In this document: one piece after another, positions 2,413-57,198 of the stretch
Layout: every line of letters starts with the position of its first letter
Numbering within the stretch: position 1 is the stretch's first letter
IMG/VR virus record: IMGVR_UViG_3300017917_003727
From: a virus
Lineage: Duplodnaviria; Heunggongvirae; Uroviricota; Caudoviricetes
DNA length: 64,000 nt
Strand: one strand, 5' to 3'
The notes under the pieces: generated by a model
What the model was told of the DNA's origin: nothing
Database searches by the model: none
The model's input: only the letters and a program-made list of their open reading frames with translations
Position numbers and translations under genes: made by a program

Positions 2413-2443
2413 TTGGCACTTTCAAAAAATTGTTGTAACTTTG
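2413..2443 (+). promoter_or_regulatory. Promoter TTGGCA-N17-TAACTTTG
   Basis: Matches the Bacteroidetes-type -33 TTG / -7 TAnnTTTG consensus; ATG of a small ORF 7 nt downstream. Confidence 0.5.
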
Positions 2444-2450
2444 TATTGTT

Positions 2451-2582
2451 ATGGAAAACAAAGATTGGAAACAGGGTTTATCAAACGGACACATAGCTCA
2501 GATAGTTCGTAGAAAGAATGTTGTTAGAGTTGTAGCTTCCAAGAAAGTCTATGATAGAAAAAAAGTTGAAAAAGTTTGGTAA
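2451..2582 (+). CDS. Small basic hypothetical protein (43 aa), leaderless-type start
   Basis: ATG immediately after a conserved promoter module; translation MENKDWKQGLSNGHIAQIVRRKNVVRVVASKKVYDRKKVEKVW; below the ORF-track size cutoff. Confidence 0.3.
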   Translation: MENKDWKQGLSNGHIAQIVRRKNVVRVVASKKVYDRKKVEKVW

Positions 2583-2606
2583 TTTGTTGGTTTTACCGTA
2601 ACTTTG
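2576..2606 (+). promoter_or_regulatory. Promoter TTGGTA-N17-TAACTTTG driving a non-coding unit
   Basis: Same conserved module as eight other sites; no ATG follows within the transcribed segment. Confidence 0.5.
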
Positions 2607-2611
2607 AATAT

Positions 2612-2736
2612 CGGTAGGTCACACCACAGAAATGAAACGAGACCGTAGCCCTTCACGTTGTTAGGGATTGGTAAGACACTACCACGGACCAAGTGAGACG
2701 GAAAACAGGTTGACAGGGGAGTAATCCCCTTTTTTA
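2612..2736 (+). ncRNA. Candidate ~125-nt small RNA or cis-regulatory leader
   Basis: Promoter module upstream, no ORF, GC-enriched relative to surroundings, ends in GGGGA-GTAAT-CCCC hairpin plus T-run. Confidence 0.4.
2716..2736 (+). terminator. Rho-independent terminator
   Basis: GGGGAGTAATCCCC hairpin followed by TTTTTT. Confidence 0.6.
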
Positions 2737-2757
2737 TTTTATAGGTATTTATTATTA

Positions 2758-3279
2758 ATGAAATTACTTAAATCACTCATTAACCTGATATCTGAAAGTA
2801 GAGGTAGAGAATATAGATTATTTCCTAATATCAGAAAAGGTAAAAAAACAATTATTTTTTTTGAAAGTGCGCACCAAAAATTTGATAGGAGTGGTGATTT
2901 AGATATTTTTGCACCTGAAAACAGACATATCTATGCAAAGATGATGGAAGGTTTTTGGAGGAGTGGTTTACCTACTGATATTATAAGAAAAAATATTGAA
3001 GAAAATTTTGACAAAATATGGGATGAGAGTACTAAGTATTTAGAGACTTGTCAAGAAGATTGTAGAATCTTATTTAAATCAAGGGATAGCGATTTAGAAA
3101 AAATTGAGTACGTAATTGCAATGTATAAATTAGACGATAACGTGATTAAGTTTGTGGTTGTTACTTCATACTTAAGTTACGATAAAGACTATCTCAGAAC
3201 TTTAAAAAGGAATGACCCAACAGTGGTTATATCTGAAAGTATTATGGACTTTGAAAAAATCAAAGTTGTTTACTTATAA
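2758..3279 (+). CDS. Hypothetical protein
   Basis: 173-aa ORF; no recognisable motif. Confidence 0.4.
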   Translation: MKLLKSLINLISESRGREYRLFPNIRKGKKTIIFFESAHQKFDRSGDLDIFAPENRHIYAKMMEGFWRSGLPTDIIRKNIEENFDKIWDESTKYLETCQEDCRILFKSRDSDLEKIEYVIAMYKLDDNVIKFVVVTSYLSYDKDYLRTLKRNDPTVVISESIMDFEKIKVVYL

Positions 3280-3312
3280 GATTTTGTATCTAATTTCTTA
3301 AAAAAACCATAG

Positions 3313-3918
3313 ATGGCTAAAAAACAAGATTTAAAAAATTCGCCCAAAGTTTTAGGATTAGACATTTCAACCAAAACCATAGGATGGGCGTTGTTTGACA
3401 TTCAATCGCACAAACTTTTAGAACTTACACATTTTTCCCCAATCATTAAACCACAACCTGAAGACAAGGTTGAAGAAATGATTTTAAAGGTTAACGCTTT
3501 TATAAAAAAACTTGAAGATTATAAAAATTTGGGAATATCCAAAATTATAATTGAGGAACCACTTTTAGGTTCTAATAATATCCATACAGTTGGAACACTT
3601 ATGAGATATAATGCAATGATTACCAAAGCAATATACGATGTATTGGGAATTGTGCCAAACTATATCTCAACATACAACTCAAGAAAATTTGCTTGGCCAA
3701 AATTAATGGGTAAGAATGATAAAAATCGTGAAACGCTTTTTGGAGGTTACCCCAAAGACATAGACAAAAAACAAGTGATTTGGGAATTTGTTTCTAAACA
3801 AGAACCACAAATTGTTTGGTTATATACTAAAAACATGACACTTAAGAAAGAGTGTTTTGACCAAGCGGATGCATATACCTGTGTTAGAGGGTATATGAAA
3901 ATGAATTCCTTTTGGTAA
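3313..3918 (+). CDS. RuvC-like Holliday junction resolvase
   Basis: N-terminal LGLDISTKTIGWALFD motif (RuvC/YqgF RNase-H-like fold) with downstream acidic residues (IIEEP, DQAD). Confidence 0.6.
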   Translation: MAKKQDLKNSPKVLGLDISTKTIGWALFDIQSHKLLELTHFSPIIKPQPEDKVEEMILKVNAFIKKLEDYKNLGISKIIIEEPLLGSNNIHTVGTLMRYNAMITKAIYDVLGIVPNYISTYNSRKFAWPKLMGKNDKNRETLFGGYPKDIDKKQVIWEFVSKQEPQIVWLYTKNMTLKKECFDQADAYTCVRGYMKMNSFW

Positions 3919-3953
3919 TTTGATATTCCCTTTATTTTTATTATCTTTCTAAC

Positions 3954-4877: not shown

Positions 4878-5662
4878 TGGACACAATTTTAGAATTAGCA
4901 AAATTTAATGAGGTAAAATATTTTGATGAACCACATAAGTACTATGCTCGTGGTAAAGAATATGTTTCAGCGACTACATTTATTGGTAAATTTAAACCAA
5001 AGTTTGAAACTCAAAGACTAGCAGAACAATATGCGGAAAGAAGAGGATTAAATGTTGATGATGTAATTGCCGACTGGGATTTAAAACGAGACATCTCAAC
5101 GGTAAAAGGTACTTTGGTACATAACATGGCGGAAAATTGGTGGAATAATAAAGCATTCCCTTATGACCCAACAATACCTGTAAAAAGTTTTGGTCACGAT
5201 ATTATAAAAGAAAAATATGAAAAGTGTGAACTACTTTTTAAAAAATTTTGGGCTGACGCATCGGAAAATTTAATTCCTGTTAAAATGGAATTAGTTGTTT
5301 GTGACCATGACTATGAGTTGGCGGGTATGGTTGACTGTTTGTTCTACAACAAAAAATCAGGAATGTTGGAAATTTGGGATTACAAAACCAACAAAGAAAT
5401 TAAAAAGAAAAATGATTATGGTCAAATGTTTAAAGACCCAATATCACATTTAGACGTTTGTGAGATTAATACATACTCACTCCAACTGTCTTTATATAAA
5501 CATATTATAGAAAAGAATACAAATCTTAATATTGGAAATTGTTATTTAATTTGGATAAATGAAAGTAGTGATAATTATAAGATATTCACTTGTAAGGATT
5601 TACAAGCGGAAATTAAACTAATGATTGAACACTATGAAAATAGCAAGAATAAGAAAGGGTAA
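4877..5662 (+). CDS. PD-(D/E)XK family nuclease (Cas4/RecB/YqaJ-like exonuclease)
   Basis: MVDCLF ... LEIWDYKT gives a D...E.K catalytic triad; N-terminal HKYY...G motif common in phage recombination exonucleases. Confidence 0.5.
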   Translation: MDTILELAKFNEVKYFDEPHKYYARGKEYVSATTFIGKFKPKFETQRLAEQYAERRGLNVDDVIADWDLKRDISTVKGTLVHNMAENWWNNKAFPYDPTIPVKSFGHDIIKEKYEKCELLFKKFWADASENLIPVKMELVVCDHDYELAGMVDCLFYNKKSGMLEIWDYKTNKEIKKKNDYGQMFKDPISHLDVCEINTYSLQLSLYKHIIEKNTNLNIGNCYLIWINESSDNYKIFTCKDLQAEIKLMIEHYENSKNKKG

Positions 5663-10373: not shown

Positions 10374-10889
10374 TTATTTCATTTTTTCTTTTATTTTTTC
10401 TAATCTATCCTGAAGACTGTCACCATATATTAAATATAGTTTTTCTAAAACACCTTTTGGGTTCTTTCTCATGTATCTTAAAACATCGTTAGGTATGTCT
10501 TCACCATATTTACCAAACACAGTACCCAATTCATATTCACGTGGCATCTTCTTAACGTTCGGCTCAACAGTAAAATCTTCATCATCCATATCACCCTCTT
10601 GAACCATGTTAGGTTCATTTACCGTGTTCATCATAAAATCAAAAACTTGGTCCATATTATTTTTAGCCTCAGATATATGGTCAACAGCCCAATCATGTTG
10701 CTTTAAAATATTATCAACCATATTAGTATCTAATTCCATCAACATGGATGTTTGTCTGTTAATCTGTTCTAAATTACCAAAAAACATGTAGTTTTCTACA
10801 CCCATATCATTACCCTCATTCAATTTGGTTTTTTGAAGTTTTTTAACTAACTTTGCTAACTGAGATTCATTTACAATTATATTTCTCAT
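10374..10889 (-). CDS. Hypothetical protein
   Basis: 171-aa ORF on minus strand, convergent with the SbcC-like gene. Confidence 0.4.
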   Translation of the reverse strand: MRNIIVNESQLAKLVKKLQKTKLNEGNDMGVENYMFFGNLEQINRQTSMLMELDTNMVDNILKQHDWAVDHISEAKNNMDQVFDFMMNTVNEPNMVQEGDMDDEDFTVEPNVKKMPREYELGTVFGKYGEDIPNDVLRYMRKNPKGVLEKLYLIYGDSLQDRLEKIKEKMK

Positions 10890-10909: not shown

Positions 10910-11449
10910 ATGAATAAACAAAGAAAAGAAACAGTAGGGACCAAGTATTTACTAATTGGTTTTGGGGATTTCAAAGGAAATCAGAAACTAATAACACAAT
11001 TATTCAATCAATTCACACCCATACTTTCATCTAGTTTCCTAAAATTTCATTTTGGTGATGATTATGTGATTGCTCATTTTGAAACAGAAGAAACTCAAAA
11101 AAACGTGAGAGAATTTTGTAATATGGTATTACAAAACACAATTTGTAATTTTATTTTACTTCCACACAATAAAAATGTCATGGTTTCGTTACCAAAAGAA
11201 CTTCAAGACTTTTTATTCAATTTAGACCAACAAGACCAAATAATTACTGACAATTTGTCTGATAATGTTGAGGAAGAAGACGAAAGAGATTTTATGGAAC
11301 AATTGTTGGAAAAATTAAATACACCAAAAACACAAGAAGAAACAAAATTGTCGCTCGACGAACTACTAGATAAAATTCAACAAAAAGGTATTGACCAACT
11401 AACACAGAAAGAAAAACAACAACTATATGACTATTCAAAAGGAATCTAA
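10910..11449 (+). CDS. Hypothetical protein with acidic C-terminus
   Basis: 179-aa ORF immediately upstream of and overlapping the sigma factor gene. Confidence 0.4.
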   Translation: MNKQRKETVGTKYLLIGFGDFKGNQKLITQLFNQFTPILSSSFLKFHFGDDYVIAHFETEETQKNVREFCNMVLQNTICNFILLPHNKNVMVSLPKELQDFLFNLDQQDQIITDNLSDNVEEEDERDFMEQLLEKLNTPKTQEETKLSLDELLDKIQQKGIDQLTQKEKQQLYDYSKGI

Positions 11450-12248: not shown

Positions 12249-12277
12249 TATTTTTGTATTTATAAATTAAAAGCAGT

Positions 12278-13347: not shown

Positions 13348-13897
13348 ATATACCCAAAAAACTCAAATCGTTTTAATCCACACCTCAAGAGTGGCGGAGG
13401 ATTATTTAAAGTCACTAGAATTTAGATATGACGGTAAATATGATAAAAAACCACATTATGTTATATTAAAATCTGGTGAAGTTGTAAATGTCCTTAACGA
13501 TACGGATGAAACAAATCTTTTTAACAAAGAAAATCCGAACAAAAATTCAATTGTAATCTGTTTGGAAAATTTAGGTTGGGTAAATAAAAATACTCTGTCT
13601 ACAACATTTTCTAATTGGATAGGAAACAAGATAGAACTTGTAAAAGAAAAAAAATGGAGGTCTAAGTTTTTTTGGGATTTTTACACCCAAGAACAAACTT
13701 CTTCTTTAGTTGAGTTATGTGAAAAACTTTGTGAAAAACATAACATACCAAAAAAATTTATTGGAACAAACACAAGAATTTCAGGTTCCGAAAATTACGA
13801 AGGAATTATTACAAGAAGTAATTTCGACGAAGATTACACAGATTTGTCGCCAGCTTTCAACTTCGTATATTTATTAGAAAAGTTTAATGATGATTAA
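13340..13897 (+). CDS. N-acetylmuramoyl-L-alanine amidase-like (Amidase_2/PGRP fold) protein, possibly non-catalytic
   Basis: IVLIHTS, PHYVILKSGEV, NSIVICLENLG and YTQEQ..L align to T7-lysozyme/PGRP blocks; the second His and the Cys zinc ligands are not evident; ATGA overlap start at 13340. Confidence 0.4.
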   Translation: MSEYTQKTQIVLIHTSRVAEDYLKSLEFRYDGKYDKKPHYVILKSGEVVNVLNDTDETNLFNKENPNKNSIVICLENLGWVNKNTLSTTFSNWIGNKIELVKEKKWRSKFFWDFYTQEQTSSLVELCEKLCEKHNIPKKFIGTNTRISGSENYEGIITRSNFDEDYTDLSPAFNFVYLLEKFNDD

Positions 13898-15879: not shown

Positions 15880-15896
15880 AACTATTTATATGTAAT

Positions 15897-17293: not shown

Positions 17294-17779
17294 ATGGAAA
17301 TGAAGTATAACATGGACCAATTTTTTAATTGGTTGGCAAAACCGATGTTACCTGAGGAAATTGACGCTTGGTATAAGTCAAATAATATCATTCCTGAGAT
17401 GAGTGATTTATTCAGGGATTTTTGTTTCTCATTATTAAAATTAGTCGATGAAACTTATTTAGGTAATGATGAAGATTCAAAGGAAACAAAAATAGGATTA
17501 ACTCAAGAAGACAAATTGGCTCATTTTGTTTGGTGTTGGAACAAAACAGTGAATAACTTTGAAAAAGAAAATATTGTATTCATCAAAAACGAAGAAACTT
17601 TTAACTACTTTAAAAACTTCTTCATGGAGGTATATTATAACCAAGAACAAGACTTTATACGAAAATCACTCAGTGATTTTTTTATTCAAATTTTCAATAG
17701 GAACAATAAACATAGTAAATCAGATATTGAGATGTTTACTGAACTTTATAAACTATTAGAAAAGAGTTTACAACATTAA
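17294..17779 (+). CDS. Hypothetical protein
   Basis: 161-aa ORF. Confidence 0.4.
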   Translation: MEMKYNMDQFFNWLAKPMLPEEIDAWYKSNNIIPEMSDLFRDFCFSLLKLVDETYLGNDEDSKETKIGLTQEDKLAHFVWCWNKTVNNFEKENIVFIKNEETFNYFKNFFMEVYYNQEQDFIRKSLSDFFIQIFNRNNKHSKSDIEMFTELYKLLEKSLQH

Positions 17780-21764: not shown

Positions 21765-21806
21765 TTTTATAATATTCCTAATATTTATCATTAAACATAT
21801 TTAAAA

Positions 21807-23081: not shown

Positions 23082-23103
23082 TTTGTAATTACCCCTTTTT
23101 TTT
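23075..23103 (+). terminator. Rho-independent terminator
   Basis: GGGGTAATT-tgt-AATTACCCC hairpin then T8. Confidence 0.65.
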
Positions 23104-23113
23104 CGTAACTTTG
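23083..23113 (+). promoter_or_regulatory. Promoter TTGTAA-N17-TAACTTTG, ATG 4 nt downstream
   Basis: Conserved module; overlaps the terminator stem. Confidence 0.45.
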
Positions 23114-23117
23114 TGGT

Positions 23118-23393
23118 ATGGATGTTGACGTTCAAATCTACATATCAAATCTGAAACAATTTTTTAAAAACAATCCAAATGACCTTATGGTCTTAATTGG
23201 TGATGCCAACCATGATAAGTTTTTTGAGTTGGTTGAAAAACAAGTTTTAGAAAATCAAAAAAATGGTGATGGTCTTGAATTGACCAAAAAACAAATCATA
23301 GATATTGTACTTATTCTTACAAAAGAAGAAGACAAAGAAAAGGTGGAGAGTTATATTATGAAAGGTCCTTTTGGTAACATAAATCTAAATTAA
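23118..23393 (+). CDS. Hypothetical protein (leaderless-type start)
   Basis: 91-aa ORF. Confidence 0.4.
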   Translation: MDVDVQIYISNLKQFFKNNPNDLMVLIGDANHDKFFELVEKQVLENQKNGDGLELTKKQIIDIVLILTKEEDKEKVESYIMKGPFGNINLN

Positions 23394-23394: not shown

Positions 23395-25056
23395 ATGGCT
23401 AAAGAAACACTATTCAAACTTGTTGTAAAAACCTATCAAACAACACATAATCGTGACCATAACGATATTGATTTGATTAAAGATATGCGTCCTAAAGACA
23501 AGGAGATTTATTTAAAATATCCTCTATTCACATTTGAAAGACATGGTGAAAAAACTGAACAGGAGTTTGTAGAAAATTATGGTAATCCTTTGGCAGAAGT
23601 GCTTCAGGTTAATAATCAGTTGATTGTGGAAGAAGAAGGTGATAAATTATCATTAAAGAAATTTACATCAACATATTACAGGAAAGTTGGTAGGAAATAT
23701 TTTGAGAAGAAGAAACACATGAGCTTCTTTACCATCAACAAAAAAACATTTGAATTCTATGTTGGTGGTATTGAAAACTATCAAAACAAAATCAAAGTCA
23801 AAAAAAGAGTTAGGAGAAACCCAGTAACTTCACCAAATTATTTAAAGAATGAATTGAGTGTATATTTTAATTATTTGTTGGCTAAAGCTCCTGAAATGAT
23901 TGGGGAATTTGTACAAGTAATTTCAGACAAATTGAAAATTAATTTTGTTGACTATGATACCATGGCAAAACAAGTAATTATTAATTTTTATAACAAAAGA
24001 GGTATTAAATTACCCGACAACATTGAGTCATTTTTAGGGGAACAACATGAGTTTATTCCAAAAACAAAGGAATTCAAGAAACATAAAAATAAGTTTATTG
24101 ACACCTTTATGTCTTTTTTCCAACTCAAAGGTAATGAGATTAAAAAAGCACTTCATTTAACTACCAATGTTAATGTCTACGGACTTAAATCATTGATAGA
24201 CATTTTTGGATACGATTTGTTATATAATGAAAAACTTATCCAACCAATCTTGGATATGCATCATTCTAAAAACTACTTCAACGTGATTCCACACAGAGCA
24301 ACAAAGAAGGAGATGAAAGACCTATTGAATTATTTTAAGTGGTTAATTATTGATGGTCAAATCAACGCTCCAACTCTTTCTGACCACATCAGATATTTTA
24401 ATCAACTCAGGTCTTTAGGTGAGGAAATAAGTTTTGATGCAAAAACCATTGATGATTTTGTTGTGGAACATGCTAACTGGTCAACAAGGGTTGCTAAGTA
24501 CCAAAATGGTGACCACGTAAGAAACTACCCACAATCGTTCAAAGAAACTATCGACCAACCTATCTTTAGTATGGATGGCGTGACATATCATCCAATACTA
24601 CTTACAACCTCAGAAGAGTATAACATGGAAAGTACAATTCAGAGTAACTGTGTTCGAAATTACATTCAAACAGCATCTGCAATTATTGTTTCAGTTCGAC
24701 TTGGTGATGAAAATTCAAAAGAAAGAGCAACGGTTGAGTATAGAGTAATGTATGATTCAACCAATCGTAAATTCATAGCAAAAAGAGTTCAATACTTGGG
24801 TAGATATAATAAAAATCTTCCCGAAACATGGAACACTGTTTTAGAGATTTTGGACCAAAGAGTAAACGAGGAAATTGAACAAAAAGACTTTAAAGTATCT
24901 ATTAAGACAACTTTCAGTAATCAAAAAGTACTCACAAGAGAATTAGTGTTTGGTGATTCTCACAGAAATGAGCAAGGAAACTACCAAGCACCAGTATTTT
25001 GGGACAAAGAAATTAATAAAGTTCACCCAAATAATTTTGATTATTTAAATTTTTAA
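23395..25056 (+). CDS. Large hypothetical protein
   Basis: 553-aa ORF; no motif recognised. Confidence 0.4.
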   Translation: MAKETLFKLVVKTYQTTHNRDHNDIDLIKDMRPKDKEIYLKYPLFTFERHGEKTEQEFVENYGNPLAEVLQVNNQLIVEEEGDKLSLKKFTSTYYRKVGRKYFEKKKHMSFFTINKKTFEFYVGGIENYQNKIKVKKRVRRNPVTSPNYLKNELSVYFNYLLAKAPEMIGEFVQVISDKLKINFVDYDTMAKQVIINFYNKRGIKLPDNIESFLGEQHEFIPKTKEFKKHKNKFIDTFMSFFQLKGNEIKKALHLTTNVNVYGLKSLIDIFGYDLLYNEKLIQPILDMHHSKNYFNVIPHRATKKEMKDLLNYFKWLIIDGQINAPTLSDHIRYFNQLRSLGEEISFDAKTIDDFVVEHANWSTRVAKYQNGDHVRNYPQSFKETIDQPIFSMDGVTYHPILLTTSEEYNMESTIQSNCVRNYIQTASAIIVSVRLGDENSKERATVEYRVMYDSTNRKFIAKRVQYLGRYNKNLPETWNTVLEILDQRVNEEIEQKDFKVSIKTTFSNQKVLTRELVFGDSHRNEQGNYQAPVFWDKEINKVHPNNFDYLNF

Positions 25057-25066
25057 CGTAACTTTG
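25037..25066 (+). promoter_or_regulatory. Promoter TTGATT-N16-TAACTTTG
   Basis: Conserved module upstream of a small basic ORF. Confidence 0.4.
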
Positions 25067-26223: not shown

Positions 26224-26236
26224 TTATATTTGTATC

Positions 26237-26761
26237 ATGGACTTATCATATAAAGAAAAAGGTAAAAACGTAAGACACAATCCACTTAAACATTATGCAA
26301 TGGAAGACGGAACTTTGGTTGCAATATATCAGGGATTTAGAGGTGGGAATCCATTGTTAGATTTTATAGTGAAATATAAGAGTAAAGGTCAAAGACTCAG
26401 GACACCCAGTCATACTCATTGGATTGTAGACCTTCTTGTTAAATGTGAATACAGTAAAGAGGTTGTTGGTGAGTATGTTCAGACTATGTTGAACTTCTAT
26501 GATACAACACAACCATTTAGAAATGTTACAGAAAGAGATACATATGAATTATCATTGTATGGTACTTTCGATTATGATTGTTTAGACACACACGGATATT
26601 ATTCTATTGAAACACTAACAGCGTTTATTGAATTGTTTTCAAAGTGTGAAAAACAAACAGAAGGTGCATTTATGTTCAGAACCCTGTTACAGTTAGTTAA
26701 AGACTACTGTGACGGTAAGAAAGATTTCTATCAAGTAGTGGGATATTCTAAAAGAGTTTAA
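26237..26761 (+). CDS. Hypothetical protein
   Basis: 174-aa ORF preceded by TATATTTG-tatc-ATG. Confidence 0.4.
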   Translation: MDLSYKEKGKNVRHNPLKHYAMEDGTLVAIYQGFRGGNPLLDFIVKYKSKGQRLRTPSHTHWIVDLLVKCEYSKEVVGEYVQTMLNFYDTTQPFRNVTERDTYELSLYGTFDYDCLDTHGYYSIETLTAFIELFSKCEKQTEGAFMFRTLLQLVKDYCDGKKDFYQVVGYSKRV

Positions 26762-31540: not shown

Positions 31541-31558
31541 TTTTATTATATTTGTACT

Positions 31559-31951
31559 ATGAAACATAGTCAAGAAAACGGAGATAAATCCCGTAACGGT
31601 AATAAATTGGAAAAATATTTTACCGAACAAACTGGGTTGAGTAAGATTAAAAAGACTCAAAAACCAAGTTTTGTTAATTCTTTTGGTAGAAAACAAATAA
31701 TTGATTTTGATTTTCATAAAAATGTTGACGGTGTTGACATTTATATGGATTTAACGACAACATATAGGACTGACAGATTAAAACAAAAAGCTTATAATGC
31801 TGTAATGTACAAAAACAATTTCAAAACACCATGTAAATTTTATATGGTTGTAGGGTCTTTGACAGAACACGGTAAAACAAAAAAACCAATCTTAATTGAG
31901 GGTATTGATGGTGTTGTAGAAATAAGTGATGCAATTAAAATGTTGGTTTGA
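31559..31951 (+). CDS. Hypothetical protein
   Basis: 130-aa ORF preceded by TATATTTG-tact-ATG. Confidence 0.4.
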   Translation: MKHSQENGDKSRNGNKLEKYFTEQTGLSKIKKTQKPSFVNSFGRKQIIDFDFHKNVDGVDIYMDLTTTYRTDRLKQKAYNAVMYKNNFKTPCKFYMVVGSLTEHGKTKKPILIEGIDGVVEISDAIKMLV

Positions 31952-31981
31952 GTTATCAAATAATTTTACTATCTTTGCATT

Positions 31982-32584
31982 ATGAAAGTTATATTCCTTG
32001 ACCACGATGGCGTAATTTGCCTTTCTTCCGAGTGGGGAGGTCGTTTTAAAAAAGAAAAAAAATTTAGAGAAAAAACGGGTGTTGAAAGAAAATTAAGTTC
32101 ACCGCATTACGGACTGCCAGTTGAATGTAGGTTTGACAATTTTAATAAAAAAGCAATTAACGTTCTTAATGAAATTTTAAAAGAAACAGGTGCTGAGATA
32201 GTTGTATCGTCAGATTGGAAAAGATGGGCAAATGTAGAAGAAATGGGTGAATACTATGAGTCACAGGGTATTGTTAAAAAACCAATTGCATTTACAAAAA
32301 GTCTACAAGATTGTACTCATCATAATGAGAAAACGTTTATTTGGTCAAGAGATTGGGACCTTGAACAATCAAGAAGTGTTGAAATCAAACAATACTTAAT
32401 TGACCATCCTGAAATTACACATTGGGTTGCAATTGATGACCTTAATATGGGAAAAACAGGGTTACATTATGGTATGGAATTCGAACACGATTGGGGGTTA
32501 GACAACTTTGTTTACACACCACTTTCAAATGAAGGTATCAAACAAAACGGAGTTAAAGAAAAAATTTTAAAACATTTGTCATGA
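31982..32584 (+). CDS. HAD-superfamily phosphatase (polynucleotide 3'-phosphatase / nucleotidase-like)
   Basis: N-terminal FLDHDGVI (DxDG motif I) and downstream SSDW / IDD acid motifs. Confidence 0.5.
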   Translation: MKVIFLDHDGVICLSSEWGGRFKKEKKFREKTGVERKLSSPHYGLPVECRFDNFNKKAINVLNEILKETGAEIVVSSDWKRWANVEEMGEYYESQGIVKKPIAFTKSLQDCTHHNEKTFIWSRDWDLEQSRSVEIKQYLIDHPEITHWVAIDDLNMGKTGLHYGMEFEHDWGLDNFVYTPLSNEGIKQNGVKEKILKHLS

Positions 32585-35948: not shown

Positions 35949-35967
35949 CTACTGAGTATTTATTAGT

Positions 35968-38505: not shown

Positions 38506-38525
38506 ATTTATTATAAATATAATGT

Positions 38526-38992: not shown

Positions 38993-39023
38993 TTGACAAA
39001 ATCAAAATCCCGTCGTAACTTTG
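38993..39023 (+). promoter_or_regulatory. Promoter TTGACA-N17-TAACTTTG (best match of the conserved module)
   Basis: Perfect -35-like hexamer, 17-nt spacer, -7 box; no ORF downstream for ~1 kb. Confidence 0.55.
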
Positions 39024-39029
39024 TAATCC

Positions 39030-39977
39030 AATTAAGGGAAAATGTTCTTTAACTTATGAATATGTCCAACACAGGACAAAATATAATGGACCCCTCCATC
39101 TATTTCGTTCAGTGTTGATAACAGACATAATTCGGCGGTTTAGCGTCGATACAAGATAACCCCAGCAATGGGACTATAGGGGCGAGAGTTTCAACAGAAC
39201 GGGTAGCTCGGTGTCACGAAAGTGGCTCACAACTAAACAGATTACCTACGGGTAGGTCCTCATGGGCAACAGCTGAGAGGAAATATTCATTCTGACTACG
39301 TGAGGTGTCAGGATTGAGGTGGAGACACCAACAGGAAAAGGTAAAGGGAATGGTTCGACTCAGACGCCAATCTGATGTAGGGCTAGGTCGCCAGTTCATC
39401 ACAGGTATCCAAAGGGTAACCTACCGATATCAAGTTGAACCGTAGTCTTGGCGGATTACAGAAAGGTGAGTGGTATTTCCTTCTTCAAAAGAGAAGCTAG
39501 CCACCTCAGAGCTCATCTTTCATTACACTCACTATGTTGATTTAATTATGAAAAATTAAAACTACAGAAAAGGAAAAGTCTCTGAGCGGTTAAGCTGAAA
39601 GTCACCTAATTCCTCGAGTGGCGACACTAACGGGGAAATTGACAGGACCCCAAGTCCTTCAGTTTTGACTAAGAAAGTCCTAGTACCTGGGCACGGGTTT
39701 AGGGAGTCCGCAAGATTCCATAGAGACGAGTAAAAGTTGAGTAGGATTAACCGATACGAGTGATTGACGTAAACAATCGGTGATGACTCAATACAGATGG
39801 CAACATTTGTGGACAATGTGAAGAACCTCTAGTAAAGGATAATGTCACGAAAGATGGGTCAAGAATACGTGTAGTCTCAGCGTTTCAGCCTTACCACCCC
39901 TTGGATAGTATCTTTGGGCCGACTTCGAAGTTTCAAATGTACACCCCACGATAAACCAATTTCGTGGGGTTTTTTTA
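39030..39977 (+). ncRNA. Candidate large (~950 nt) structured non-coding RNA of unknown class
   Basis: ORF-free on the sense strand, GC ~50% in a 33% GC genome, consensus promoter and intrinsic terminator on the same strand; not recognised as rRNA, tmRNA, RNase P or group II intron by motif inspection. Confidence 0.5.
39944..39977 (+). terminator. Rho-independent terminator
   Basis: CCCCACGA-taaaccaatt-TCGTGGGG then T8. Confidence 0.65.
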
Positions 39978-39987: not shown

Positions 39988-40016
39988 TTGACAATGCGAT
40001 AAATAAGAAATATAAT
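39988..40016 (+). promoter_or_regulatory. Sigma-70-consensus-like promoter TTGACA-N17-TATAAT (followed by TAACTTAG)
   Basis: Exact hexamers at exact spacing, 50 nt upstream of the DGQHR gene. Confidence 0.4.
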
Positions 40017-40924: not shown

Positions 40925-40931
40925 AATAAAA

Positions 40932-40956
40932 CCCCTCACAAACGAGGGGTTTTTTA
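40932..40956 (+). terminator. Rho-independent terminator
   Basis: CCCCTC-acaaac-GAGGGG then T6. Confidence 0.6.
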
Positions 40957-40957
40957 T

Positions 40958-40988
40958 TTGGTAATATCAAAACTTTTTTATAACTTTG
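40958..40988 (+). promoter_or_regulatory. Promoter TTGGTA-N17-TAACTTTG, ATG 4 nt downstream
   Basis: Conserved module. Confidence 0.5.
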
Positions 40989-40992
40989 TATT

Positions 40993-41259
40993 ATGACTCA
41001 CTACCAACTCAATTTTGTACATCCTGTGTTAGGTGAATTGACATCTCCAACATTCACCGACCAAACACAATTCCGTATATTCTGTAAGATGGTTCAGGCT
41101 TCCTTGGCTTTGAAACAAGACCTTACAACCTATGACGCACAGGATTTGTTTATCCATATTCCTTACAAGGTATTGGTTGAATCTGTTGTTGTATCTAAAG
41201 TAAATGGGTTGAACTTGGCTGACTACGTAAAAGAAAAAGCAAAGATAGCTACTCAATAA
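40993..41259 (+). CDS. Hypothetical protein (leaderless-type start)
   Basis: 88-aa ORF. Confidence 0.4.
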   Translation: MTHYQLNFVHPVLGELTSPTFTDQTQFRIFCKMVQASLALKQDLTTYDAQDLFIHIPYKVLVESVVVSKVNGLNLADYVKEKAKIATQ

Positions 41260-41999: not shown

Positions 42000-42030
42000 T
42001 TGACTATTCAATAAATGTTTAATAACTTTG
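42000..42030 (+). promoter_or_regulatory. Promoter TTGACT-N17-TAACTTTG, ATG 4 nt downstream
   Basis: Conserved module. Confidence 0.5.
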
Positions 42031-42034
42031 TATT

Positions 42035-42307
42035 ATGAGAGACCTAACCATACAAGACGTAATGGACAAAAGAATGGTTCACCCTTTGGGTGGATACCAA
42101 TCTCGATTTGAGGTTGGCGAATATGAAGTGTCAGTTGTTGGTGGAAGACACGGATTATACGGTGATTTTGAAACCACTTTCGAACTTGCAATTTTTGACA
42201 AAAATGGTGAATTTGTCACGGAAGAATTTGTAAAGAGAGGAAATGGTGACGTTGAGGGTTGGCTCGACAAGGAACAGTTGATGGATATAATTAACTCAAT
42301 TCCTTAA
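42035..42307 (+). CDS. Hypothetical protein (leaderless-type start)
   Basis: 90-aa ORF. Confidence 0.4.
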   Translation: MRDLTIQDVMDKRMVHPLGGYQSRFEVGEYEVSVVGGRHGLYGDFETTFELAIFDKNGEFVTEEFVKRGNGDVEGWLDKEQLMDIINSIP

Positions 42308-42388: not shown

Positions 42389-42401
42389 ATATTTATATGT
42401 A

Positions 42402-46577: not shown

Positions 46578-46710
46578 ATCTTTATAAATATAGAAAAAAA
46601 TAGTATATTTGTATTATGGCTGATATAGTTTTAGTAAGTGCGTTAACATTATTTCATCTATACATGTTGTCGGCAGTAAAAGACAAAGAAAAACGTTAAT
46701 ATTTATTGTT

Positions 46711-47519: not shown

Positions 47520-47822
47520 ATGGAACTTAAAACAAAAGAAAGATTATTTTTTACAGGTTTATTCCTGTGGGTAGTTATGATGATATTTGTAGCGCTTACA
47601 TTTACAAGTTGTCAGAACAAAACAAGAGTTAAATCGGTTGATACCGAAACATTAATCATAGATTCAATTTGGGTTAAAAAACCTGGTGAAATTAATACTA
47701 TGCAAACAGACTATAGATATTTTGCAAGACTCACAAATGGAAAAGAAATTATGGTAAATAGTTTTACAAAGGTTGGAGATACAGTACACTTTGTTTTTTA
47801 TAATTTGGAAAAATACAAATAA
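47520..47822 (+). CDS. Small membrane-anchored protein
   Basis: N-terminal TM helix. Confidence 0.35.
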   Translation: MELKTKERLFFTGLFLWVVMMIFVALTFTSCQNKTRVKSVDTETLIIDSIWVKKPGEINTMQTDYRYFARLTNGKEIMVNSFTKVGDTVHFVFYNLEKYK

Positions 47823-47835
47823 TTCGGTAACTTTG
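47805..47835 (+). promoter_or_regulatory. Promoter TTGGAA-N17-TAACTTTG, ATG 4 nt downstream
   Basis: Conserved module. Confidence 0.45.
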
Positions 47836-47839
47836 CATT

Positions 47840-47998
47840 ATGAAAACAATAATTGTATTAGTTATTCTTTGTTGCAACTCACAAAGTGAAAGTGGCTACA
47901 AGTATGAAGCGAAGAATTTGACCACAAATCAAACAGGTGATTTTTACACCAAAGTTAAATATAACGAAGGTGATACGGTAAAAATAGAAATAAAATAA
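47840..47998 (+). CDS. Small putative lipoprotein (52 aa)
   Basis: MKTIIVLVILCCNSQSE signal/lipobox-like N-terminus; below the ORF-track cutoff. Confidence 0.3.
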   Translation: MKTIIVLVILCCNSQSESGYKYEAKNLTTNQTGDFYTKVKYNEGDTVKIEIK

Positions 47999-50504: not shown

Positions 50505-50516
50505 GTATTTATAGAC

Positions 50517-50775: not shown

Positions 50776-53007
50776 ATGTCATTACTATACATAGCACTAT
50801 TCAACCTAATACCAGGTCCGATAGACACAGCAAAAGCTGAAACCATTGGTCAAGTTACCGTCAAGGCTTCGTCAAAAAAAGAAACAGTATCTTCTGTAAT
50901 TAATATTCAAAGAAAGAGTTTAACAATAATGGATGCAGTGTCATCCGAATCAATTAAAAAAACACCTGACAGAACAATTGGGGATGTTTTAAAAAGAGTT
51001 GGTGGTACATCAATACAAAATGATAAGTTTGTAGTTGTTAGGGGTCTTGCTGATAGATACAATTCGGTTTTAGTAAATGGTTCAATCATAGGTTCAACAG
51101 AACCTGATAGGAAATCATTTTCATTTGATTTAATACCATCAAATACAATTGATAATTTAGTTGTTTACAAAACCGCATCACCTGATTTACCTGGTGATTT
51201 TTCAGGTGGAGTAATAAAACTAACAACTAAAGTGGTAGACTCAAAATCAAAATCATTTGATTTTGGATTAGGATATGGAACGTTAAGTTCTTTTAGAAAT
51301 TCTTGGCAAATATCATCATATGTTTTACCTAATAATTTTTTAACTACCAAAGAATTTAGAGCATTATCAAGTGAGGCAAGACACGTAGAGTCACAAAAAA
51401 TAACACAATCTTTTAACCCAACACAAGGATTTAATATCCCTAATTTGACTCTTGTTTATAATCAGGGTAACATGACCAAAAAGTTTTCTTATTTGACAAA
51501 TTTTACATTAAGAAATTCACATAATATTACCACAACACAAAGAAAAGATTATATGTCGGGTAATGATTTAATGTATGATTATACCGACAAGATTTATACT
51601 AACACAACAAGTTTTGGTGGAATTGTAAATTTGAAGTATAAAAAATATGATTTTAAAAATAATATTAATTATTTGAATGAAAATTCTATTACAAATAGAA
51701 ACGGAATTAACTTTGATAATGAACAGTTAATTACAAGTAGTAGTTCTAATCACAATAGAAAGTTTATTTTGATGTCACAATTTGTGACCCCAAAGTACTC
51801 ATTTAATTATACATTGTTACACAGAAGTCAGCCAGATTATAGAGTTAATCCATTTGCCAAGAACATCACATCAAATGGTGATAGTTCGTTTGTATGGAGA
51901 GATTCTTACAGGTTTTGGAGTACCATGAACGAACACACTTTTGGTGGTTATTACAACGATACGATTGGTAAATTCAAATATGGTTTCTACGAACAATTAA
52001 AATACAGAAATTTTGGAGCGAGAGTTTTCAGATACGAACCAAATTACATTTTAAGTGAAATTACGAACAACACCGACAAGTATAATGCATATTCTAACTT
52101 ACTTTCAGGATATGGAATGTATTCTAAAACTTATAATAAGTTTACTACATCAGGTGGAATAAGAATTGAAAATCAAATATTCAAAGTTAATACATATGAT
52201 TTTAGTGGGAGACCACAACAAGTTAATAGAAATTATCTTGATGTATTACCATCATTAAACTTAATCTATGGTGTTAGGAATAATAAAAATATTAGAGCTT
52301 CAGTTAGTAGGACAGTTGCTAGACCTGAGTTTAGAGAAGTAAGTAATTTCTCTTTCTATGACTTTGTTAGAAACGCACAAGTAATTGGAAACCCAAAGTT
52401 ATTAAGAACACAAATAACTAATATTGATTTAAGATACGAGATATATCCATCATCAAAAGAAATTATCACATTCTCAACATTCTATAAAAAATTTACAAAT
52501 CCAATTGAACAAATTGTTGATAATGGTTCGGTACCAAGCAACTTAATTTTAACATTATCTAACCCTAAACAAGCAACAATATACGGTGGAGAATTGGAAA
52601 TAAGGAAATCAATTAATAACAATTTCACAATATATTCCAACTTGTCTTATTTTAAATCTGAAGTTAATATTCAAGGGAGAACAAGACAATTGCAAGGACA
52701 ATCACCATACATTATCAACACAGGATTGTATTATACAAAAGGAAAGTACTCTGTTAATATGTTCTATAATAGAATTGGAGAAAGAATATCGGCAGTAGGA
52801 TTTCAAGGGTATCCCGACATTTATGAAAATGCAAGGGATGTAATTGACTTGACAATTCAATACCAAACAAAGAAGATATCAATTAAATTTGGTGTGTCAG
52901 ACTTGTTAGGGCAATACTCAAAGTTTTATCAAAATAATCAAAATAGAACATTAATTAAAACAAATAACGAACAAACAATAAATCTAAATATAAATTACAA
53001 ATTATGA
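50776..53007 (+). CDS. TonB-dependent receptor-like outer-membrane protein (plug plus beta-barrel)
   Basis: Plug-domain blocks (VRGLADRYNSVLVNGS, RKSFSFDLIPS, VYKTASPDLPGDFSGGVIKLTTK); long Y/N/T-rich barrel-like remainder; atypical N- and C-termini. Confidence 0.55.
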   Translation: MSLLYIALFNLIPGPIDTAKAETIGQVTVKASSKKETVSSVINIQRKSLTIMDAVSSESIKKTPDRTIGDVLKRVGGTSIQNDKFVVVRGLADRYNSVLVNGSIIGSTEPDRKSFSFDLIPSNTIDNLVVYKTASPDLPGDFSGGVIKLTTKVVDSKSKSFDFGLGYGTLSSFRNSWQISSYVLPNNFLTTKEFRALSSEARHVESQKITQSFNPTQGFNIPNLTLVYNQGNMTKKFSYLTNFTLRNSHNITTTQRKDYMSGNDLMYDYTDKIYTNTTSFGGIVNLKYKKYDFKNNINYLNENSITNRNGINFDNEQLITSSSSNHNRKFILMSQFVTPKYSFNYTLLHRSQPDYRVNPFAKNITSNGDSSFVWRDSYRFWSTMNEHTFGGYYNDTIGKFKYGFYEQLKYRNFGARVFRYEPNYILSEITNNTDKYNAYSNLLSGYGMYSKTYNKFTTSGGIRIENQIFKVNTYDFSGRPQQVNRNYLDVLPSLNLIYGVRNNKNIRASVSRTVARPEFREVSNFSFYDFVRNAQVIGNPKLLRTQITNIDLRYEIYPSSKEIITFSTFYKKFTNPIEQIVDNGSVPSNLILTLSNPKQATIYGGELEIRKSINNNFTIYSNLSYFKSEVNIQGRTRQLQGQSPYIINTGLYYTKGKYSVNMFYNRIGERISAVGFQGYPDIYENARDVIDLTIQYQTKKISIKFGVSDLLGQYSKFYQNNQNRTLIKTNNEQTINLNINYKL

Positions 53008-54224: not shown

Positions 54225-54342
54225 AAAAAAATATTTTTGTATTGATACTTTATAATTGTCAAATATATTTATTTCTGATGAAAAAATTGAGACGACATAA
54301 TTATCGAACACAAATAAACAATATTAATATATTATCATTTAA

Positions 54343-54372
54343 ATCCCTTCTCTAATGAAGGGATTTTTTTTG
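54343..54372 (+). terminator. Rho-independent terminator
   Basis: ATCCCTTC-tctaat-GAAGGGAT then T8. Confidence 0.6.
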
Positions 54373-55214: not shown

Positions 55215-55222
55215 AAATAACA

Positions 55223-55249
55223 AACCCTCACTTAACGGTGGGGGTTTTT
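55223..55249 (+). terminator. Rho-independent terminator, family copy 3
   Basis: CCCTCAC-ttaac-GGTGGGGG then T6. Confidence 0.65.
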
Positions 55250-55259
55250 TATTTAAAAA

Positions 55260-56132
55260 ATGTTTCTTACACTTACCAAAACTATTATGAGTAGGTTAGA
55301 AAAAATAAAGGAACAACACCCTGAGTTGAATGTTACAATCATTGACTTGTTGGCAAGTATGGACCCAACTGATTCATACAAATACTTGGAGTTTTTGGTA
55401 AAAAGACTCAAAGATTATTATCAAGAAGAAAAGGAACAATTAGGTTTACACATTGCCATTGATTTGATAGGTACTGAAAACACCAAGACACTTAATGAGT
55501 ATGAAAAACATTGTAAAGCCAACAGGATTGAGAAAAATGATATAACTCAAATTAAGACTTGGCAAGAAATGAAAAGTGAGGTTAAAAAAGCCGAAGCAAT
55601 TGAAGAACAGAAAAAGAATGAGAAACAAATAAAGAAAATTTTTGAAAATGAAAATTACAAAATTTTAATTCCTCTTTCTTATGAAGCTTGTAAGATTTAT
55701 GGTTCAAATACAAAATGGTGTATAACACAAAAAAGTCATTGGGACACATATTCCAAAAGCTATAACATCTTATTTGTAATTGATAAATTATCAAATAAAA
55801 AATACGCCATTTCAAGAAAGAAAGGTGAACAGACAATTGATGCTTGGGATGAAAAGGATGTTCAAATGAGTCCTTTATTGTTGAAACTTCCACATGAAAT
55901 TATGGATAAGATTGTTGAGACAATATCAAAGGAAAAAACTATTGTTGAAATGGCTAAAAACTTAGTTAAGAAAGAAGAACCAAAACAAAAAAAGATGGAC
56001 GATTATCTACCTTATTTCAACCCAAATAATAGTATCTATTATGATGAAAATCTTATTGGTGAGTTATTTTCAAAATGGATAGACTCAAGTAAAATTCCTA
56101 CAAGTTATTTTTACACTAAAGGAGACGAATAA
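55260..56132 (+). CDS. Hypothetical protein: 'TKWC' paralog domain plus K/E-rich N-terminal region
   Basis: EACKIYGSNTKWCIT...Y...LFVIDK block shared with ORFs 21807 and 28977. Confidence 0.45.
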   Translation: MFLTLTKTIMSRLEKIKEQHPELNVTIIDLLASMDPTDSYKYLEFLVKRLKDYYQEEKEQLGLHIAIDLIGTENTKTLNEYEKHCKANRIEKNDITQIKTWQEMKSEVKKAEAIEEQKKNEKQIKKIFENENYKILIPLSYEACKIYGSNTKWCITQKSHWDTYSKSYNILFVIDKLSNKKYAISRKKGEQTIDAWDEKDVQMSPLLLKLPHEIMDKIVETISKEKTIVEMAKNLVKKEEPKQKKMDDYLPYFNPNNSIYYDENLIGELFSKWIDSSKIPTSYFYTKGDE

Positions 56133-56133
56133 T

Positions 56134-56508
56134 ATGAAATTTGCACTTATAGCACACGACGGAAAAAAGGCGGACATGGTTGCCTTTGTAATGAAAAGAT
56201 TAGAATTCTTCAACAGGGAAGATGTTGAAATATATGCTACAGGAACAACAGGTAAAAGAATTGTTCATGCTGGTGTTGAAAAGGTTGTAACCCTAAACTC
56301 AGGACCAATGGGTGGTGATGCGGAAATTGGAGCCATGGTTGCCAAAGGTGAATTGGAAGGAGTAATATTCTTCAGGGACCCACTTGATAAACACCCACAT
56401 GAACCCGATGTTCAAATGCTAATGAGACTATGTGATGTCCACGATGTACCACTAGCAACAAACTATAAAAGTGGACATATTATGGTTAAGTATTACTCAG
56501 AAAAATAA
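56134..56508 (+). CDS. mgsA: Methylglyoxal synthase
   Basis: FALIAHDGKK, YATGTTG, SGPMGGD, VIFFRDPL...PHEPDV blocks align closely to bacterial MgsA. Confidence 0.7.
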   Translation: MKFALIAHDGKKADMVAFVMKRLEFFNREDVEIYATGTTGKRIVHAGVEKVVTLNSGPMGGDAEIGAMVAKGELEGVIFFRDPLDKHPHEPDVQMLMRLCDVHDVPLATNYKSGHIMVKYYSEK

Positions 56509-56514
56509 AATCAT

Positions 56515-56907
56515 ATGAAAACAAAAATATATTTCAAAGGAGAATTTGAGGGATATGGTGTTGTCATATCTTGGGATAAAAGTAGGAATGATAAAAAGTA
56601 TCAAAATTTTTCATTTAGTAGAGTTCCATCAGCCCGTGAGAATGGATACAAGACAAGAGAATTGAGTTACAATCAAATTGCTGGTGGACAATACACAACC
56701 AAAGAAATCACAAGATACCTTGTAACAGGTTCGTTTGGTTCTTGGATTACTCACAAAACTGAATTGATGGATGAATTTGAAAAAGTAATTAATATTTGTG
56801 TTGACGAATTTATAAAAGATGTCAACAATGAATATTCACTTGACGGAATGATTGGAAGAATATTTATACAACCTTTTGAGAAATTTTTTGACTGGTTAAA
56901 AAAATAA
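56515..56907 (+). CDS. Hypothetical protein
   Basis: 130-aa ORF. Confidence 0.4.
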   Translation: MKTKIYFKGEFEGYGVVISWDKSRNDKKYQNFSFSRVPSARENGYKTRELSYNQIAGGQYTTKEITRYLVTGSFGSWITHKTELMDEFEKVINICVDEFIKDVNNEYSLDGMIGRIFIQPFEKFFDWLKK

Positions 56908-56918
56908 TTGTATATTTG
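56888..56918 (+). promoter_or_regulatory. Promoter TTGACT-N17-TATATTTG, ATG 4 nt downstream
   Basis: Conserved module; overlaps the end of the upstream gene. Confidence 0.45.
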
Positions 56919-56922
56919 CAAC

Positions 56923-57198
56923 ATGATTAAACTATTTAAAGAAAAATTTTTACAGTTGGATTTTGGTATTCAGATGATAATAGTTACACTAACTATTTTA
57001 ATATCAAATCAACTATTGTCCTTCACAACTAAGTTGATGAATTATTCCGACACGTTCGCATTTAATACTGGTCTCATTCTAACCTTTACTTTATTTGTAT
57101 TCCAAGCTTTATTCATATTTTTGGGTATAAAGTCAGTGATAAATTACATAAGAAAAACAAAACAAAATAATATAAATAACAATGAGCAATCTAACTAA
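56923..57198 (+). CDS. Small membrane protein
   Basis: ATG 56923 (ORF-track 56908 is a TTG); three hydrophobic helices. Confidence 0.4.
   Translation: MIKLFKEKFLQLDFGIQMIIVTLTILISNQLLSFTTKLMNYSDTFAFNTGLILTFTLFVFQALFIFLGIKSVINYIRKTKQNNINNNEQSN

Follow-up and report, generated by a model that had tools for sequence, protein, structure and literature searches.

Predicted leaderless genes behind Bacteroidetes-type promoters and a second promoter-like motif in a putative giant phage of Bacteroidota

A 64,000-nucleotide (nt) stretch of Caudoviricetes DNA, IMG/VR record IMGVR_UViG_3300017917_003727 (the window, meaning this whole stretch), carries promoter-like boxes that recur a few nucleotides ahead of ATG codons. 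The question it raises is whether these boxes are promoters, which polymerase would read them, and where their transcripts begin. A sequence-only reading had described nine such boxes, matched them to the Bacteroidetes sigma-A consensus, proposed that some of the mRNAs lack a leader, and assigned the host phylum. Our best explanation, which we consider likely, is that the window comes from a giant phage (about 200-320 kb), not yet cultivated, that infects a member of the Bacteroidota and combines host-type promoters (class 1) with a second promoter family (class A).

Class 1 sites consist of a -33 TTTG or TTG, a spacer of 19-21 nt, and a -7 box, TAHHTTTG, which here is nearly always TAACTTTG. 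Bayley (2000), Vingadassalom (2005), and Chen (2007) are said to have described sigma-ABfr promoters with a -33 TTTG and a -7 TAnnTTTG. The window holds 12 full sites, every one on the plus strand and none on the minus strand, plus three boxes that lie 4 nt before an ATG (N4) and lack the -33 element (Table 1). Spacing from TTG to box is N20 in nine of the full sites, N19 in two, and N21 in one. The boxes seen are TAACTTTG (10 of the 12 full sites), TATATTTG, and TATCTTTG, none with a G at the two free positions. All nine boxes reported earlier are where they were placed, each with a TTG 19-21 nt upstream, and the five ATGs said to follow a box by exactly 4 nt (23118, 40993, 42035, 47840, and 56923) are correct. 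In Flavobacterium johnsoniae, the -7 element is T-12 A-11 .. T-8 T-7 T-6 G-5, with G essentially absent at the two free positions and G-5 nearly invariant; transcription starts 4 or 5 nt past the box, and many host promoters have no clear -33 (Baez 2019; PMC6847099).

Expected counts were obtained from 300 dinucleotide-preserving shuffles. TTG-N19-21-TAACTTTG occurs 10 times on the plus strand and 0 times on the minus strand, against 0.19 expected and a shuffle maximum of 2. The broader TTG-N19-21-TAnnTTTG is found 19 times on the plus strand and 5 times on the minus (3.6 expected), and TAnnTTTG-N4-ATG 9 and 2 times (1.0 expected). Of 77 plus-strand boxes, 16 are intergenic, in a window whose intergenic share is 6.5% (coding share 93%) by our own gene map based on open reading frames (ORFs). 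The motif thus does not occur at similar density in shuffled or coding sequence, as the shuffles and the intergenic enrichment show.

The sequences flanking different class 1 boxes are unrelated to each other. At 92% nucleotide identity, in the related locus L014, boxes persist with differing free positions or flanks. For example, the box of 23083..23120 is kept in L013 and L014 with an altered flank in the latter (cg to ct), and the box at 26225, TATATTTG in the window, is TATCTTTG at the matching place in L014, so that only the free positions have changed. These positions are lineage-specific: the window shares AC with L013 and L014, most relatives have TC, and some have TA, which suggests concerted promoter tuning within each genome. 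Together, the published geometry (PMC6847099), the strand and intergenic biases, and the footprints in relatives support the assignment of class 1 sites to promoters of the Bacteroidetes sigma-A type, as the sequence-only reading had it.

One class 1 promoter is predicted to drive the operon of a phage sigma factor, whose gene thus stands behind a host-type promoter. The factor has regions 2 and 4, lacks region 1.1, and is RpoD/SigA-like by NCBIfam and by PDB sequence search. Eight relatives, with sigma factors 68-85% identical, were examined, and all have a TAnnTTTG box upstream of the operon, with AT, TC, TA, or TT as free positions and, in most, a TTTG about 19 nt upstream; the leader from box to ATG ranges from 14 to 54 nt. 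This is the pattern that selection on a sigma-A promoter would leave. Many giant-phage contigs encode the factor at 68-94% identity, and its top hits were all phage copies; the homologues at 75-94% identity have both sigma domains, and the contigs read are syntenic giant-phage contigs. Among GenBank phages, the best match is 37% identical.

The position of the boxes relative to start codons is what bears on leaderless transcripts. Nine of the 15 boxes (12 full sites and three without -33) have the box-N4-ATG arrangement, and ten boxes have an independently called start no more than 12 nt away, the distance being exactly 4 nt for 8 of them. We sampled 324 kb of related DNA in 27 non-redundant loci with 523 called starts. 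There, 17 TAHHTTTG boxes lie 4 nt from the start, no box lies at 0-3 or 5-6 nt, and the remaining boxes lie mostly 13-25 nt away; a -33 TTG is present in 10 of the 17 N4 cases. In 83 kb of Bacteroidota bacterial DNA (53 genes), all eight upstream TAHHTTTG boxes lie 21-52 nt from the start.

Given the published distance of 4-5 nt from box to transcription start, an N4 spacing would place +1 on the A of the ATG. That these ATGs are genuine start codons, in the absence of a Shine-Dalgarno sequence, is indicated by several features. In TAACTTTG-N4-ATG the ORF cannot start earlier, because the TAA of the box is an in-frame stop 12 nt upstream, and several ORFs behind boxes have no alternative start. 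The protein starting at 31982 matches Pfam HAD_SAK_2 from residue 3, which fixes that ATG as the start. The small gene 2451-2582 (43 amino acids (aa)) has no other in-frame start, and both the ORF and its box-tattgtt-ATG arrangement are conserved in L059 and L061. In L038, TATCTTTG-N4-ATG and a 52-aa ORF are kept upstream of the RNA ligase gene, with differences from the window at third codon positions from the first codons on; the window counterpart, 47840-47998, has a hydrophobic, Cys-containing N-terminus that by eye is lipoprotein-like. For the gene at 40993-41259, both distinct orthologue upstream regions have an N4 box. These observations bear out, as a prediction, the leaderless starts proposed earlier, and the two small ORFs 2451-2582 and 47840-47998 that had been flagged are conserved together with their boxes. 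The N4 transcripts would then begin at the AUG and be translated without a leader.

Leaders this short are not the norm in the host phylum, where leaderless mRNAs make up 4-13% of transcripts. They account for 5.5% in Flavobacterium psychrophilum (PMC9723704); 3.7% of 5' untranslated regions in Bacteroides thetaiotaomicron are shorter than 10 nt (PMC7366714), and 87% of leaders in F. johnsoniae are longer than 10 nt (PMC6847099). Bacteroidota do without Shine-Dalgarno sequences and use other leader features (PMC6847099).

Two of the boxes precede no ORF and had been claimed to head RNAs, which agrees with what lies downstream. The box at 39016 leads to a GOLLD RNA, of which Rfam RF02032 matches 39461-39883 (+) at 299.4 bits (gathering score 150) over model positions 1-416 of 416, and a strong terminator (39947-39975) follows. 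The matched part is the universally conserved 3' half; in GOLLD RNAs, about 420 nt of less conserved 5' sequence come before this region, so a 5' end near 39040 is expected; the box lies about 430 nt before the conserved 3' half, and in this match, in the variable 5' half of about 430 nt, in the total of about 950 nt, and in its phage context the window RNA resembles the family (PMC12286853). The class 1 promoter, with a predicted start at about 39028, and the terminator delimit a gene of about 950 nt. GOLLD RNAs often lie near tRNA islands; the window copy, unlike these, has no tRNA genes nearby (ARAGORN found none anywhere in the window), and it has a delimited Bacteroidota-type promoter and an intrinsic terminator. 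Directly 3' of this terminator, 39988-40016 (+) is a perfect 12/12 Escherichia coli sigma-70 consensus, TTGACA-17-TATAAT, 50 nt upstream of the gene 40067-40924, which is odd for a Bacteroidota phage; its -10 is off TAnnTTTG. Relatives of this gene were not found in viral contigs.

Behind the box at 2599, a unit of some 125 nt runs to a terminator. Its ORFs do not exceed 10 aa, Rfam gave no match to it, and its fold is not significant (z-score -0.48). At the matching position, L052 (about 5240-5440) and L059 (about 5330-5530) have noncoding units of about 200 nt, that in L052 with its own TATCTTTG box, and an Rfam search of the syntenic loci found nothing. The L052 and L059 units share blocks with each other (e.g. 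aacctgattggaaa, ggtggagcc.agtctcacgac) and little with the window copy. The unit may be a variable phage small RNA.

A second motif, here called class A, emerged from an unbiased test of the 30 nt upstream of starts, in which ATATTTAT is the top 8-mer: the two strands together have 26 copies, of which 16 fall in these upstream stretches (p about 3e-20). For the core TATTTAT, the distance to the ATG is 4-7 nt at 14 starts and 12-29 nt at another 9, and the upstream 35-mers contain it 23 times, against 4.2 +/- 2.1 in composition-matched shuffles. An A precedes the motif in 19 of 24 sites, and an A follows five bases after it in 20 of 24, wherever the ATG lies; a -35-like upstream partner was not found. 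Copies are oriented with the gene (18 forward versus 3 reverse-complement). They stand before 12 of 27 divergent-unit heads and 6 of 70 co-directional genes; where the gap is at most 5 nt, 1 of 33 genes has one. Seven minus-strand units are headed by class A and none by class 1; seven of the eight minus-strand class A sites lie 4-14 nt before the first gene of the unit. Several sites are directly 3' of terminators (2715, 35915, and 42361), and one forms a back-to-back pair with class 1, the promoter at 42000..42037 abutting the ATATTTAT site of the minus-strand gene 41249-41986.

Class A is also conserved. In the relatives, ATATTTAT is among the most enriched 8-mers (20 copies versus 1.65 expected), and it is present with the same spacing in 14 of 23 distinct orthologue upstream regions (below 88% aa identity), versus 1 of 108 for genes without the motif. 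TATTTAT-N5-ATG of the 734-aa gene is kept in L052, L059, L061, and L064, down to 47% aa identity, with diverged flanks, and the site at 21781 is kept in L001, L016, and L018. The Bacteroidota bacterial sample has one TATTTAT copy upstream of its 53 genes. The window thus has a second conserved promoter-like motif, distinct from the host consensus and upstream of other genes, which we infer to fit a -10-only promoter and not a ribosome-binding signal, an operator, or an RNA-processing site.

Some further features of class A may be recorded here. At 38504-38520 and 20695-20716, divergent genes are separated by perfect palindromes, ATATTTAT-(T)-ATAAATAT back to back; each would consist of two class A sites that overlap in opposite directions, with predicted transcription starts that cross. 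Three small ORFs that begin 4-7 nt past ATATTTAT, 20716-20886 (+, 56 aa), 20702-20565 (-, 45 aa), and 54278-54355 (+, 25 aa), are called differently or not at all in the ORF map; the 45-aa product has a CxxC motif followed by a hydrophobic stretch resembling a membrane helix.

Based on the consensus match, the host primary-sigma (sigma-A) RNA polymerase would read class 1 and start 4-5 nt past the final G. At N4 sites the transcript would begin with AUG and have no leader, which suits a host that does not use Shine-Dalgarno pairing. Class 1 would also drive the GOLLD RNA, the short noncoding unit, and, with normal leaders, the sigma-factor operon. Class A would be a second promoter class, used at a later stage of infection by a phage-reprogrammed polymerase. 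Most of its sites would give leaders of 0-3 nt, and one candidate reader is the phage sigma factor. Reading of class A by a phage-modified polymerase is the weakest step of this proposal.

It is that step which the strongest alternative would dispense with: class 1 and class A could be one family, ATATTTAT being a weaker or variant -7 box for the host sigma factor. Both are T-rich elements of the -10 region at similar distances from the ATG, TATATTTA resembles TAnnTTTG with A replacing G, and promoters lacking a clear -33 are common in the host (PMC6847099). However, G-5 is nearly invariant in host promoters (PMC6847099), the class A core is A-TATTTAT, and the T two bases upstream that a TAnnTTTA register demands is present in 10 of 24 sites. 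Moreover, TATTTAT is not enriched in the bacterial sample, strand use differs between the classes, and conservation at orthologues is 61% for class A versus 20% for class 1. We therefore regard a single family as unlikely.

The boxes might instead act in translation initiation, as an AU-rich element bound by the ribosome or S1 without Shine-Dalgarno pairing. Both motifs do stand at short, fairly fixed distances from start codons, Bacteroidota use leader features other than Shine-Dalgarno sequences (PMC6847099), and A-rich 8-mers are enriched upstream of starts in the relatives. Yet class 1 sites carry a -33 TTG at promoter spacing and also precede the GOLLD RNA and the noncoding unit, and the box of the sigma operon is kept while its distance to the ATG varies from 14 to 54 nt. 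Class A hardly ever occurs at gaps of at most 5 nt, where translational coupling is expected, and is frequent at divergent heads, which need a promoter, and the A five bases past it is conserved irrespective of ATG position. A purely translational role is very improbable on these grounds.

Just as poorly placed is the proposal that ATATTTAT is no core promoter, but is bound by a phage DNA-binding regulator or nucleoid protein or marks where RNA is processed. Several perfect palindromes (38504-38520, about 20702-20716) do look operator-like, and AU-rich sites are typical RNase targets. Against this, most copies are single and gene-oriented, the palindromes separate divergent genes, a place where a pair of promoters is expected, the first gene of a divergent unit is not explained by a processing site, and past terminators the motif is the sole conserved sequence before the ATG; we find this reading highly improbable. 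Finally, a by-product of AT-rich intergenic composition, or recently duplicated cassettes without a regulatory role, can be given almost no credence: at 31% G+C, T-rich words are common and the uniformity of TAACTTTG could suggest copying, but dinucleotide shuffles never reach the observed counts, composition-matched shuffles fall well short for TATTTAT, box flanks are mutually unrelated, distant relatives keep boxes while flanks diverge and free positions vary, and the N4 spike recurs independently in 27 loci, and a chance or compositional origin was rejected on both kinds of shuffle.

Several points nevertheless weigh against our explanation. Distant relatives retain class 1 boxes only weakly at orthologous positions (3 of 15 versus a background of 6 of 108), so individual class 1 promoters appear to turn over. 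The full match with its box at 17554 lies inside coding sequence, and the matching part of L001 has no TAACTTTG copy; the match may be due to chance, or the site may be an internal promoter serving the small ORFs from 17842 on. Region 4 of a sigma factor normally reads a -35-like element; as the phage factor has a region 4 and class A has no -35, the factor may read class 1 and not class A. If it does act on class 1, the near-fixed AC here versus TC in most relatives may reflect lineage-specific tuning. No structural or polymerase genes for an early or late assignment were found in the window, and without structural genes timing is not deducible from gene function. The gene map is our own ORF-based call, and both the leaderless starts and the promoter activity of class A are inferred.

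As regards the promoter map offered by the sequence-only reading, the listed sites hold, but it omitted the sites at 10848 and 17554 and the whole of class A (ATATTTAT), the commonest motif, which is better conserved than class 1 and stands before more genes. Its looser variants stand in part: those at 26225, 31547, and 46604 are TATATTTG-N4-ATG without a -33, and that at 31970 (TATCTTTG) has a -33 TTG, but those at 42830 and 20593 do not stand. The TATATTTC sites before these two are off consensus at the nearly invariant G-5 and were rejected; the ORF at 20593 is 22 aa long.

The assignment of the host to the Bacteroidota, made earlier from promoters, also has promoter-independent support, and is obtained from sequence alone. 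The product of 62051-63943 has a T9SS type A sorting domain (32.7 bits versus an NCBIfam threshold of 23). The TonB-dependent receptor is 29-39% identical to Bacteroidota homologues, and 10 of its 11 relatives in bacterial genomes are from Bacteroidota. A Shine-Dalgarno signal was rejected, as it shows no enrichment before the window starts, and the A-rich leaders of the relatives are also a Flavobacterium trait (PMC6847099).

GenBank phages gave no near match to the window (megablast, 24 kb of window). Contigs in synteny with it come from IMG/VR and metagenomes and reach 295-321 kb, which places the window in an uncultivated giant-phage family. Nearly all of its genes are on the plus strand. 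Domain matches identify replication and recombination genes (RuvC-like resolvase, DnaG-like primase, PD-(D/E)XK nuclease, and SbcCD), and other recognized genes encode DnaJ, two DNA methyltransferases, thioredoxin, GlnII, guanylate kinase, a NUDIX protein, a sigma-70 family sigma factor, and a phage-type RNA ligase. Four auxiliary genes are host-like (Table 1); for the GlnII-like gene, an exact-protein look-up returned no record. Searches of PHROGs, Pfam, and PDB sequences were uninformative for the large proteins of 734, 553, 599, and 449 aa.

Terminators can overlap the next promoter, as at 23075-23113 and 40928-40988, where each unit of terminator, promoter, and predicted leaderless ATG occupies about 60 nt; the hairpin 23075-23095 holds the -33 TTTG of the 23083 site in its loop. 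The ORF at 25101-25253, behind a class 1 promoter, encodes a very basic, Lys/Ser/Arg-rich protein of 50 aa (MAKKPAKSSSSFSSKYREKAKV...), and L066 has a 58-aa Hc1 histone-like gene at another place.

Table 1. Coordinates of promoter sites, RNA units, and selected genes in the window
Feature	Position	Strand	Remarks
Class A, ATATTTAT-N5-ATG	194..209	+	before 734-aa gene
Class 1, TTG-N20-TAACTTTG	2413..2443	+	ATG 2451 7 nt past box; predicted leader ~3 nt
Class 1	2576..2606	+	-33 in last codons of small ORF; opens noncoding unit
Noncoding unit, ~125 nt	about 2611-2735	+	box 2599 to terminator 2715-2730
Class 1	10825..10855	+	predicted leader ~50 nt; upstream of DUF6576 and sigma-factor genes
DUF6576 gene	10910-11449	+	operon with sigma-factor gene, behind 10825/10848 class 1 promoter
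Sigma-70 family factor, primary-like, 273 aa	11427..12248	+	Pfam Sigma70_r2 and r4
Full class 1 match, TTG-N21-TAACTTTG	17530..17561	+	within coding sequence of ORF 17294-17779
Class 1, N4-ATG	23083..23120	+	gene 23118-23393 (predicted leaderless), then 553-aa gene
Class 1, TTG-N19	25037..25066	+	predicted leader ~30 nt; before 25101-25253, thioredoxin cluster
TATATTTG-N4-ATG, no -33 TTG	26225..26239	+	directly 3' of terminator-like hairpin; gene 26237-26761
TATATTTG-N4-ATG, no -33	31547..31561	+	gene 31559-31951
TTG-N19-TATCTTTG-N4-ATG	31948..31984	+	gene 31982-32584, HAD domain of RNA-repair proteins
GlnII-type glutamine synthetase	33216-34409		host-like auxiliary gene
Class 1, cTTGACa-N17-TAACTTTG	38993..39023	+	GOLLD RNA gene; predicted start ~39028
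GOLLD RNA gene, ~950 nt	39028..39975	+	variable 5' half, conserved 3' half, terminator
Class 1, N4-ATG	40958..40995	+	directly 3' of terminator 40928-40953; gene 40993-41259 (predicted leaderless)
Class 1, N4-ATG	42000..42037	+	gene 42035-42307 (predicted leaderless)
TATATTTG-N4-ATG	46604..46699	+	27-aa hydrophobic ORF 46616-46699
Class 1, N4-ATG	47805..47998	+	52-aa ORF 47840-47998, upstream of RNA ligase gene
TonB-dependent receptor	50776-53007		host-like auxiliary gene
TTG-N20-TATATTTG-N4-ATG	56888..56925	+	gene 56923-57198 (hydrophobic, 91 aa), then SPFH (Band 7) gene
PaaA/PaaC-like protein	59637-60608		host-like auxiliary gene
T9SS-sorted 630-aa protein	62051-63943		host-like auxiliary gene
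Class A 8-mers [A/G/C]TATTTAT	2745-2752, 12256-12263, 13867-13874, 15882-15889, 21781-21788, 28952-28959, 35956-35963, 38504-38511, 42389-42396, 46699-46706, 50505-50512, 59153-59160, 60954-60961, 62018-62025	+	
Class A ATATTTAT	10911-10904, 28703-28696, 28921-28914, 38520-38513, 41999-41992, 45378-45371, 46591-46584, 59130-59123	-	plus-strand coordinates

A -33/-7 promoter is textbook for the phylum, and its presence in a Bacteroidota phage is expected. As in the sigma-ABfr promoters, there is the -7 octamer without G at the free positions, a TTG or TTTG 19-21 nt upstream, and an intergenic, gene-oriented placement, and the published start distance of 4-5 nt explains N4. Unlike host transcripts, which mostly have leaders, the phage has its box exactly 4 nt before the ATG in 9 of 15 cases, and the free positions are almost fixed.

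Among known leaderless mRNAs are lambda cI and those of Actinobacteria, Deinococcus, and archaea, with a -10 element just upstream of the start codon. The predicted phage transcripts share with these a core promoter element at a fixed short distance, the lack of a ribosome-binding site, and an ATG start. They differ in phylum and promoter type, in being a feature of a phage family whose host phylum is rarely leaderless, and in the modules of about 60 nt from terminator through promoter to ATG, in which the -33 can sit in the terminator hairpin (23075-23113). Leaderless mRNAs are modelled in GeneMarkS-2 (PMC6028130).

Phage sigma cascades with -10-only late promoters are known from T4, whose gp55 uses TATAAATA, and from SPO1, with gp28 and gp33/34. 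The likeness is that an early, host-type promoter leads to a phage sigma gene and that a second, uniform 8-bp element has no -35. However, ATATTTAT is not the T4 motif, the window sigma factor is primary-like with a region 4, unlike gp55, many class A sites lie 4-7 nt from the ATG, and here the sigma factor is a candidate reader of the motif.

Three features are less expected. One is that promoter and ATG are systematically joined at exactly 4 nt throughout a phage family whose host phylum seldom has leaderless mRNAs; another is how strongly the ATATTTAT class is conserved; the third is a phage primary-like sigma gene with an upstream TAnnTTTG box in the window and the eight relatives examined. 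In the searchable literature, which is incomplete, we found none of the three described, including leaderless genes in Bacteroidota phages and a phage promoter of the ATATTTAT type; as a sign of novelty this is weak. Possibly, the ATATTTAT class is new.

By our count, about two thirds of the predicted protein-gene promoters in the window lie at most 7 nt from the ATG. We tentatively suggest, as a possibility, that a widespread, uncultivated family of 200-320 kb Bacteroidota phages expresses most of its genes from terminator-promoter-AUG modules with leaders of 0-3 nt, using two promoter classes, the host -33/-7 type and a hitherto undescribed -10-only ATATTTAT-N4-A read by a phage-reprogrammed polymerase, possibly through its own sigma factor. 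If this were true, leaderless translation, rare in the cells of this phylum, would be a main mode of expression for the phage.

The promoters give a usable transcription map for a giant-phage family whose sigma factor has no relative above 37% identity among GenBank phages. This map fixes start codons, exposes small genes missed by ordinary gene callers, and delimits the GOLLD transcription unit from promoter to terminator. It also points, as a proposal, to a two-step program in which a host-type promoter would supply the phage sigma factor and a second promoter class would follow. If transcript mapping confirms these predictions, the family would be a natural system for ribosome initiation on 5'-terminal AUGs without Shine-Dalgarno pairing.

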